Shown here: one piece after another, positions 9,001-12,000 of the stretch
How positions within the stretch are numbered: the first letter of the stretch is position 1
Layout: every line of letters starts with the position of its first letter
Source: a virus
Taxonomy: Duplodnaviria > Heunggongvirae > Uroviricota > Caudoviricetes
Reading direction: 5' to 3' (one strand)
DNA: 39,549 nucleotides
IMG/VR virus record: IMGVR_UViG_2526164633_000032
Coordinates: 1-39,549 of that record
Program-made: the position numbers

Positions 9001-12000
9001 CTACAGAAGGAACCCACGGAACAACTACACCTTGTGCATTTTTTAAGGCGAAATAAGCACCATACGGAACGAGGTCGCCGGGGAAATATCCCTTAATGGC
9101 TTCCATTCGTGCCGGGTACTGTCCTTCAGGAACCAGCCAGCAGAATTGGTTTTCGCCGTTCCACCCGCGTCGAGCAACTTTCTTGCCATCCTTCAGCCAC
9201 ATCAGCGCGTCAGAAAAGTCGGCTGCTTCAAGGTCGATTTCTTCTTGTAGAGTAGCGATACCGCCAGCAGAAATAGTTACGTCCCTGGCTGTAATGAATG
9301 TCACCCCATTGTGACCTTCAATGCTGAGCGATACCCCATTTTCGAAGAAGTCGTTAGTCCGACTAAAGCCTTCTTCAAATGTTTTTTCTGGTGAATAGGA
9401 CAGAGATCCGTCCTCATAAGCGACCAGATATCCGCCAATTTCTGGTCGGTGTTTTTGCAAAAACATTTTATCAACATGGACTTTTACCCCTTCTGGCTCA
9501 ACGACTTCGATGTTGCAAAGAAGGACCACATCCATTAGGGCGATAATTTCGATATCTTTGATTTTTGAGGCGCGAACTGTTTTATGGCTTTTGTATTTTG
9601 GAAGTGCCGTCAAAAGCTCTTTCGTTGTCATGTTATTCATAGTCTTTCCTCTGCTTAAAACCTGATGTCTTGCGCCTTCAGGTGGGTCAGGAATGTTTTC
9701 CCACCAGCGAAAGCAATATCTCGGGGTGTTCTTTTCGTGAAAAGCGCGTGCCATTGCCAACTTTGGCGTTTGTTTGCGAGTTCGTGCTTTTGTCGGCGTC
9801 TGGACCACCGCTTTTCTTTCAGTCGTTTTTTACACATTCAAAACGGAATATCGTCGTCAAAGTCCATTGGAGGTTCGTTATTGGCGTTGCTCTGAGGTTT
9901 ACCGCCACCGCTGTATTGCTGGTGGTTTTGAGGTTGGTTTGATTGCCCCCAGCCATTTGAGGACTGTGAATCGTCACGGCGAGCGCCGATCATTTGCATG
10001 GTGCCGCCCTGGCTGACGATAATTTCCGTCGTGTAACGTTCTACACCGGCGTCATCTGTCCACTTACGGGTTTTAAGTTTCCCTTCGATGTAGACCTGAG
10101 AACCTTTTCGTAAATATTCACTCGCAATTTCAGCAAGTTTTCCGAACAAAACGACTTTATGCCATTCTGTTTGCTCTTTCTGTTGGCCCGTTTGCTTGTC
10201 GCGCCATGATTCATTCGTTGCGATGCTGAGTCTTCCGACCGCTCCGCCATTTGGTATATACCTGATCTCCGGGTCTTGCCCCAGGGTACCAATCAGGATG
10301 ACTTTGTTTACACCGCGTTGTGCCACTTATCTTACCTAATAAAATAAATTAATTAGAGCAATAATGTATATCTTTGAAACGTAGCTAACAAGTGATTTGC
10401 ATTATCCTGTGCCTTCTAAAGGGATCGAGTCAGTCGGTATTGGCTGTGAATGGGTGTTTGTCCTGGAGCGTAAAAAATTCGCTTATGAGGTCTTTATGAA
10501 GGGAAAAACAGCCGCAGGAGGCGGTGCAATTTGCGCTATCGCGGTGATGATTACCATCGTGATGGGTAATGGCAATGTGCGAACCAACCAGGCGGGGCTT
10601 GAGCTTATCGGAAACGCTGAAGGTTGCCGACGTGATCCATACATGTGCCCGGCGGGTGTATGGACTGACGGGATTGGTAATACACACGGGGTAACGCCTG
10701 GCGTGCGAAAAACCGACCAGCAAATCGCCGCTGATTGGGAAAAGAATATCCTGATCGCTGAACGCTGTATTAACCAGCACTTCCGGGGCAAAGACATGCC
10801 CGATAATGCCTTCAGCGCAATGACAAGCGCGGCATTCAATATGGGATGCAATAGTTTACGGACCTACTACAGCAAAGCGCGAGGCATGCGAGTCGAAACG
10901 TCCATCCACAAGTGGGCGCAGAAAGGGGAATGGGTGAATATGTGTAACCATCTCCCTGATTTCGTGAACAGTAACGGCGTCCCCCTGCCCGGGTTAAAGA
11001 TTCGCCGTGAAAAAGAACGCCAGCTTTGCCTGACGGGGCTGATCAATGAATAAACTCCGGCAGCTCCGCCGACTTTCGACAATGAAGTTATCGCTGGCGG
11101 CGATAGTTTTCGACTCGATTTTCATGGCGGTATATGTGCTCAATGAGACGTGGCCACTGGAACCGCTATTATATGCCGGGCTTCGGCTGTGCCTGACATT
11201 TTTGAGCATGGCTGCAAGATTGATGCAGCAGAAAGAAACCGCTTCAGATTGCCCACGTCGCGCGGTGCGCAAATATATGGCACGCAGACGAAGGCGATAA
11301 TAGTTAACGATAACCCCGGCAGCCGCCGGGGTTATTTTTGATGGTTATTTAAACGGGTTGATTGAATTATTAAACGTGATGATGCTTGTCTCACGCGGTG
11401 CCTGGATGTTAGCCGCTTGCGGAACCTCCTTAATTTTCTTGGTGACAGGCAAGTTGCGTGCGCCAACTTTGATCAGAGATTCGAAAAGCGTGGCCACGAT
11501 TTTTGCATCACCAGGTTCTTTGAGGCGGAATGCGTCTTTTTGGGCGGCGGAGACGAAAATCGGGAGGTTATCCAGTTCGTCTTGCATCGCTGCCAGCACA
11601 TCGTCGCGGATACCCGCTGTTTTCTCCAGCAAAGCGATTCGCGCTTCAGCATCTGCGATCTTGGCCATTGCTTCGAGGTGGCGGCCCTGGCTTTCGAGTA
11701 GTGCGGTTTCCAGTTCTGCCGTACGCTCTGTCGCCTCCACCATCATTTCCAGTTCAGCCATTTTGCCGTAATGGGATATAACTGCCTGCACTGACTCGTC
11801 GGAGTACCCATGCGCCGCCAGGGACTCTGCCAGTAGAGATTTAGAATCCGCGCTTTCAAACATTCCGGCGCTGGCAGGATGATCCAGACTGATATAGTTC
11901 GGCGTTGTCACATAATCCACACCATGGAAGCTGGTGGTTACAGCGATTTTCCCGGACTCACGCCCGCCAGTGGCCCAGCTCCAGCCACCAGCTCGGCTTT

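Follow-up and report, generated by a model that had tools for sequence, protein, structure and literature searches.

The prototype late promoter of phage P1 is Ps (LPs), which lies upstream of the tail-fiber operon. P1 has 11 late promoters, at which host RNA polymerase acts under positive control of the phage protein Lpa, whose site is a 9-base-pair (bp) inverted repeat (PMC10695390). Lpa is a sequence-specific DNA-binding activator that is thought to contact Escherichia coli SspA directly, while SspA binds the RNA polymerase holoenzyme and not late-promoter DNA (PMC1891329, summarizing Hansen et al. 2003). The lyz mRNA follows expression of lpa, and transcription of lyz is Lpa dependent (PMC8198154). 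Here, we compare these promoters with a short element in the virus record IMGVR_UViG_2526164633_000032 (39,549 nucleotides; "the window" hereafter means this whole stretch), where a preliminary description had noticed the motif AACAAGTGA upstream of three genes and taken it for part of a P1-type late promoter. The sites at 10387, 14122, and 36902, together with a fourth at 1148-1169, are very probably Lpa-dependent late promoters (LPlyz, LPpro, LPmat, and LPdar, respectively) of a P1-like phage-plasmid. Their identity as promoters rests on sequence identity to P1, on placement and orientation, on an excess over chance, and on conservation in a divergent relative.

Identity of the window sites with annotated P1 late promoters

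Alignment identifies the window as a P1-type phage-plasmid: with P1 it shares ~98% identity and, save for insertions and replacements, runs collinear from coordinate 32380 to 35 (BLAST map). Over 3 kb around lyz, the identity to Ro157c2YLVW, SJ46, RCS47, P1, and P7 is 98%. Written as RACAAGTGA, the motif matches exactly three times in the 39,549 bp, at the places originally claimed (10387-10395 [+], 14122-14130 [-], and 36902-36910 [-]), and each copy does lie on the coding strand upstream of a gene. The P1 record AF234172 (= NC_005856) annotates 11 late promoters (LPmat, LPpro, LPlyz, LPdar, LPs, LPsit, LP23, LP26, LPpmgL, LPhot, and LPpac). In 10 of these, 4 bp lie between a "-22 region" of 9 bp and a -10 signal of 6 bp; the spacer of LPhot is longer. 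This annotation, together with secondary citations, is what we use as the published consensus. It gives LPlyz ("previously identified late promoter of gene 17"), LPpro, and LPmat ("former LP2") the layout of upstream element plus -10 box that had been proposed for the three sites, and their annotated 19-mers are base-for-base identical to those of the window. The three sites were aligned with all 11 P1 promoters; identity over the annotated 19 bp holds for LPdar as well. The P1 interval that corresponds to the window holds exactly four late promoters, and all four are present. In each site, the -22 region is an imperfect inverted repeat of 9 bp (consensus AAGTGACTT), which a 4-bp spacer separates from the -10 hexamer:

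LPlyz, 10387..10408 (+): AAC 10387-10389, AAGTGATTT 10390-10398, spacer GCAT, -10 TATCCT 10403-10408; annotated 19-mer 10390-10408
LPpro, 14109..14130 (-): AAC 14130-14128, AAGTGACTA 14127-14119, spacer GTGT, -10 TAAATT 14114-14109; annotated 19-mer 14127-14109
LPmat, 36889..36910 (-): GAC 36910-36908, AAGTGACTT 36907-36899, spacer CAGT, -10 CAGAAT 36894-36889; annotated 19-mer 36907-36889
LPdar, 1148..1169 (+): GAG, AAGTTACTT 1151-1159, spacer TGCA, -10 TACCAT 1164-1169; annotated 19-mer 1151-1169

The anatomy of the element required some correction. The word first noticed is real in its RAC and in the left six bases of the 9-mer, but the right third of the palindrome (AAGT-G-ACTT) had escaped attention; conservation continues 3' of that word to complete the 9-mers AAGTGATTT in LPlyz, AAGTGACTA in LPpro, and AAGTGACTT in LPmat. 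Likewise, the A/T-rich hexamer that had been placed 5 to 6 bp after the motif exists as the -10, but the annotated -10 begins 7 nucleotides (nt) after it, so that the placement was 1 to 2 nt out of register. The three copies had been correctly identified, whereas LPdar was overlooked because GAG AAGTTACTT differs from RACAAGTGA at two positions.

The setting of the sites is as uniform as their sequence. LPlyz serves lyz (ATG 10496, open reading frame [ORF] to 11053) and lydD, LPpro serves prt (TTG 14066) and pro, and LPdar serves lydA (GTG 1198), lydB, hdf, darA, ddrA, and ddrB. All four sites precede, and are co-oriented with, late genes for lysis or morphogenesis (lyz, prt-pro, mat, and lydA-darA), the gap from the end of the -10 to the start codon being 87 nt for lyz, 42 nt for prt, 129 nt for the 205-amino-acid (aa) mat ORF (ATG 36759), and 28 nt for lydA. 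The spacer measures 4 bp in four of four sites, and the positions of the 9-mer that are invariant among the 11 P1 promoters (T4, A6, and T8) are kept in every one. LPpro directly adjoins the ribosome-binding site and start codon (14142, +) of the divergent gene darB. Compared with P1, the sequence, flanking genes, orientation, and start-codon distances are alike, and the promoters themselves differ in nothing.

The short word and the full element carry different statistical weight. RACAAGTGA occurs 3 times against a mean expectation of 0.45, and at least 3 copies were reached in 2 of 100 dinucleotide shuffles; because one-mismatch variants of the 8-mer ACAAGTGA are at background (28 observed, 24.8 expected), an 8-mer or 9-mer of this kind is weak, only suggestive evidence. 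The full 22-nt element, unlike the short motif, is strong evidence. A first weight matrix of this length (RAC, 9-mer, 4 nt, and -10), built from ten P1 promoters, revealed LPdar. As a guard against circularity, a second matrix was built from the P1 promoters outside the window interval (LPs, LPsit, LP23, LP26, LPpmgL, and LPpac) and from orthologues in Cronobacter phage JK004. This independent matrix gives 25.4 bits for LPpro, 21.1 for LPlyz, 18.9 for LPmat, and 18.1 for LPdar; over the matrices, the scores range from 21.1 to 24.3 bits for LPlyz and from 25.4 to 26.9 bits for LPpro. In 300 dinucleotide shuffles, the best score had a mean of 13.6 bits and a 95th percentile of 17.1, a shuffle contained on average 0.26 matches of 15 bits or more, and at least four such matches were found in 0 of 300.

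Conservation of the element in divergent relatives

Relatives were scanned by way of Lpa homologues: viral contigs gave only Lpa proteins at least 99% identical, species-representative genomes gave 3 loci, all P1-type, and the only relatives with a divergent Lpa in the phage collection were JK004 and D6. JK004 is a divergent P1-like phage, with 69% DNA identity in the mat region and an Lpa that is 63-67% identical. A whole-genome scan found the element there upstream of eight orthologues (mat, gene 23, R/S, gene 26, prt, pacA, lyz, and pmgC/sit), and at mat and lyz it is retained despite diverged flanks. The site orthologous to LPpro lies 13 nt upstream of prt. As in the window and P1, the form RAC-AAGTGACTT-N4-TAnAAT precedes the orthologous late operons, whereas single bases of the 9-mer have changed (e.g., AAGCGATTT at lyz and AAGTGACCA at prt) and the LPdar-orthologous site is degenerate (AAAGCACTT); the JK004 record carries no promoter annotation.

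At mat, the upstream sequence of JK004 cannot be aligned, yet TTGAC-N5-GACAAGTGACTT-N4-CACAAT is kept. Two Salmonella phage-plasmids have TTGAC-N5-ACAAATGACTT-N4-CATGAT at the same place, so that the block TTGAC-N5-ACAA(G/A)TGACTT-N4-CAnnAT is common to JK004 and both plasmids. More generally, AC stands directly 5' of the 9-mer in every one of the 8 JK004 sites and in 8 of the 11 promoters of P1, and a purine occupies the preceding position in 9 of those 11; the bases 3' of the 9-mer are not conserved. Conservation thus spans an asymmetric block of ~12 bp, of which RAC is part. It is possible that RAC is a functional, asymmetric part of the Lpa operator that sets the direction of the promoter.

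Phage D6 offers a different comparison. Its Lpa-like protein is only ~31% identical to P1 Lpa, and P1-type sites are practically absent from its genome, with a single match to the P1 matrix. A k-mer search nevertheless found a shared element, AAATCACA-N7-(T/C)AnnnT, upstream of lys, prt, ddrB, R, pmgB, 23, 7, and mat; sites in record coordinates are, for example:

19216 (+), D6 element
25240 (-), D6 element
27746 (-), D6 element
38134 (-), D6 element
45510 (-), D6 element
54143 (-), D6 element
67412 (-), D6 element
72119 (-), D6 element

As in P1, a short element stands at a fixed distance from a -10 before lysis, portal, capsid, tail, and mat genes, and the core of the D6 element, AAATCAC, is similar to the P1 9-mer read as its reverse complement (AAGTCAC). 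It differs from the P1 element in its sequence (AAATCACA), in being nonpalindromic, and in the gap after the 9-mer equivalent, which is 6 nt rather than 4 nt. A palindrome guessed for D6, ACTAAGTTAGT, was not repeated in the D6 genome and was discarded. A divergent Lpa with a different element is what would be expected if the activator and its site had coevolved.

Proposed mechanism and alternative explanations

Binding of Lpa, coactivation by SspA, and the transcript starts in this element would follow, by orthology, from the literature on P1. Lpa (gp10) would be produced late in lytic growth from an early promoter that C1 represses and that lies outside these regions of the genome, and its dimers would bind the -22 palindrome, which would be centered ~22 bp upstream of the transcription start and would substitute for a -35 contact. 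SspA would bridge Lpa to the sigma-70 holoenzyme, which, recruited or activated in this way, would read the -10 (TAnnnT-like) and start ~7 nt after it. The resulting switch would turn on the lysis genes (lyz-lydD and lydA-lydB), the head and portal genes (prt-pro), the dar antirestriction genes, and mat. A comparable case is virulence activation by the Francisella MglA-SspA-PigR system, in which a DNA-bound activator is proposed to work via an RNA polymerase-associated protein of the SspA family and for which P1 Lpa/SspA has been cited as a precedent (PMC1891329). The likeness is mechanistic only, since the Francisella system governs a host regulon, not a phage late switch, and its activator and DNA site are unrelated.

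Several observations weigh against the assignment. The -10 of LPlyz (TATCCT) fits TAnnnT yet matches TATAAT weakly, and the first position of the LPmat -10 (CAGAAT) deviates from TAnnnT. The window encodes no lpa (tblastn best E = 0.67); in P1, lpa lies next to pacA, across lox and beyond the point where the window ends, and its presence in this element appears probable from the close relatives P1, P7, SJ46, and RCS47, each of which encodes an Lpa that is 99-100% identical. LPmat overlaps the predicted sigma-70 promoter Pmat, so that some Lpa-independent transcription is possible there, and an intrinsic terminator stands between LPmat and the mat ORF, such that promoter activity alone may not yield mat expression. 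Finally, the evidence for this particular genome is sequence comparison.

The strongest competing explanation is that these are ordinary sigma-70 promoters that need no phage activator, the motif being incidental or an extended upstream element. The -10 hexamers are indeed sigma-70-like, and at LPmat a TTGACA at a nonstandard distance of 19 bp upstream of the -10 is conserved in JK004 and in the two Salmonella plasmids; the P1 record assigns it to a predicted sigma-70 promoter, Pmat, that shares the -10 of LPmat. However, the motif is located at about -25 to -17, not at -35, and LPlyz, LPpro, and LPdar have no -35 match at the standard 16- to 18-bp spacing. Late transcription, moreover, needs Lpa and SspA according to published work (PMC10695390, PMC8198154, PMC1891329), and D6, with its divergent Lpa, carries another upstream element at the equivalent place. 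We consider activator-independent promoters unlikely on these grounds.

Alternatively, the motif could be the operator of a repressor, for instance C1 or a different phage or plasmid regulator, and not the site of an activator. P1 intergenic regions are rich in C1 operators, among them Ossb (Op21), ~25-45 bp away from LPlyz, and Omat, on the upstream side of LPmat. Yet the annotated 17-bp C1 operators are separate features at other coordinates, and the fixed 4-bp spacing to the -10 and the fixed orientation toward late genes point to a promoter element, so that a repressor site appears even less probable than activator-independent transcription. Least credible of all is a chance short word without common function, for which the modest overrepresentation of the 9-mer and the background level of its one-mismatch variants might speak, but which is refuted by the matrix statistics and orthology, as the full 22-nt element stands far above shuffles at four co-oriented intergenic sites, coincides with annotated P1 late promoters, and is kept in JK004 where the flanks have diverged.

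A structured leader between LPmat and mat

The stretch from the LPmat -10 to the ATG of the 205-aa mat ORF (36759-36757), a leader of ~129 nt at 36757..36888 (-), contains the following elements:

36880-36872 and 36828-36820 (-): outer stem, GCCCGGTAC pairing with GTACCGGGC
between LPmat and mat (-): inner hairpin
36798-36780 (-): terminator-like hairpin found by a terminator scan, followed by the T-run TTCTTTTTTG at 36779-36770

The predicted fold of the leader has an energy of -44.1 kcal/mol (z = -2.0). Outer stem, inner hairpin, and terminator are all retained in JK004 and the two Salmonella plasmids, and D6 clearly retains the terminator despite its different promoter element. The module of promoter, leader, terminator, and mat is shared by the P1 lineage, JK004, both Salmonella phage-plasmids, and D6. 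Their consensus fold contains 27 pairs, with compensatory changes in 7; since these relatives amount to effectively four independent lineages, the covariation is only suggestive. No Rfam family matches the leader meaningfully.

The P1 record treats this stretch differently. AF234172 annotates it as coding for the N-terminal 37 aa of Mat, with the mat start at an ATG 19 nt past the LPmat -10 (250 aa). The window has GGGG in the leader where P1 has GGGGG and, because of this one missing G, the P1-annotated frame stops after 46 codons and the long ORF begins at ATG 36759 (MDKK..., 205 aa). A mat start at MDKK is also found in JK004 and the Salmonella plasmids, and single-base insertions and deletions in the leader disrupt any common reading frame across the lineages. 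Tentatively, and with the balance of probability somewhat against it, LPmat could drive, instead of mat directly, a structured leader RNA with a terminator before the mat ribosome-binding site, serving as an attenuator or antitermination switch for this "maturation control" gene or giving rise to a short late RNA.

Additional candidate sites

A weaker candidate lies at 1460..1481 (+), with AAC GAGTGAATA TCGA TAGCAT, and scores 17.0-18.7 bits, slightly above the 95th percentile of the shuffled maxima. It falls in coding sequence at the 3' end of lydA and precedes the lydB start (1524) by 42 nt. It retains T4, A6, and T8, is identical in P1 (30900-30921), where it is unannotated, and is only partly kept in JK004. 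The site could serve lydB, the antiholin gene, as an internal late promoter, or it may be a chance match. In the leader of lydA itself (1170-1200, +), CCTCC at 1173-1177 can pair with the Shine-Dalgarno sequence AGGAGG at 1187-1192 that precedes the GTG start of this holin gene, which could form a hairpin sequestering the Shine-Dalgarno sequence; the pairing was not conserved in JK004. P1 also has an unannotated late-promoter-like site at 76780-76801 (-) of AF234172 (AAC AAGTGACTG GTGA TAACCT; 21 bits), just inside the 5' end of gene 7.

Two further possibilities were rejected. The candidate at 35919-35940 (-), AAC AAAGGACTC ACCA TACTAT, scores 19.2 bits before the ORF of a GNAT acetyltransferase, but we judged it a chance match because the invariant T4 is broken and the -10 overlaps the ATG of that ORF. 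Bidirectional use of the LPpro palindrome toward darB, by analogy with LP26/LPpmgL of P1, was dismissed because AGGATT, which would have to act as the -10, is the ribosome-binding site of darB and only 14 nt separate the palindrome from the ATG of that gene, which would make the transcript leaderless; the reverse face of LPpro scores 11.8 bits.

Organization of the window relative to P1

A BLAST comparison of the whole window with P1 (AF234172) gave five collinear segments:

1-8137: P1 32380-24246; cin, lydC, lydA/B, hdf, darA, ddrA/B, hxr
8168-8952: P1 22531-21747; isaA
9637-15435: P1 21740-15943; ssb, lyz, lydD/E, pro, prt, darB start
29028-35227: P1 15951-9752; remainder of darB, ulx, lxc
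36173-39548: P1 3413-35; mat, ref, c8, cre, cra

Compared with P1, the window has darB interrupted by a Tn21-like transposon (15436-29027), has a GNAT gene in place of res/mod, and has neither IS1 nor IS5. The two parts of darB (14142-15470, 442 aa, and 29033-34510, 1825 aa) flank a GC-rich insert of ~13.6 kb that matches Tn21-family transposons found on thousands of plasmids and contains a mer operon with merA, a class 1 integron (intI1, aadA, and sul1), and a Tn3-family transposase. Inside the integron, the attI/aminoglycoside leader at 23981-24055 is the sole match in the window above the Rfam gathering threshold. At 35228-36172, the P1 type III restriction-modification genes res/mod and IS5 are missing, and an ORF for a 202-aa GNAT-family acetyltransferase (35312-35920, -) is found instead.

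Between hxr and ssb, at the place of IS1 and isaB in P1, there is a 281-aa ORF (8963-9808, -) whose C-terminal part matches the Pfam Tad2-like domain (Thoeris anti-defense 2-like; E = 2.5e-22) and which adjoins an isaA-like ORF (8168-8956, -). It could be an anti-defense cargo gene. The region at 36560-36920 is 100% identical to E. coli plasmid NZ_CP010179.1 (116,417 bp), possibly a very close relative.

Significance

The element examined here is an already annotated P1 late promoter: the observation was real and its interpretation right, and the finding was already known. These promoters are textbook regulatory elements of a model phage, and as a discovery their presence here carries little weight. 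Possible novelty is confined to the mat leader and, less so, to the RAC bases 5' of the 9-mer and the variant element of D6. P1 has been suspected of encoding antiterminators, of which, to our knowledge, none has been shown; the mat leader, if true, might bear on this question. For the window itself, the analysis gives four late transcription units, not three, and the exact anatomy of the element: a 12-bp RAC plus AAGTGACTT, a 4-bp spacer, and a -10. In this form the motif is usable as a marker of Lpa-regulated operons in P1-like plasmids that carry resistance genes, the cargo here being the Tn21-type transposon within darB, with its mercury resistance and class 1 integron.

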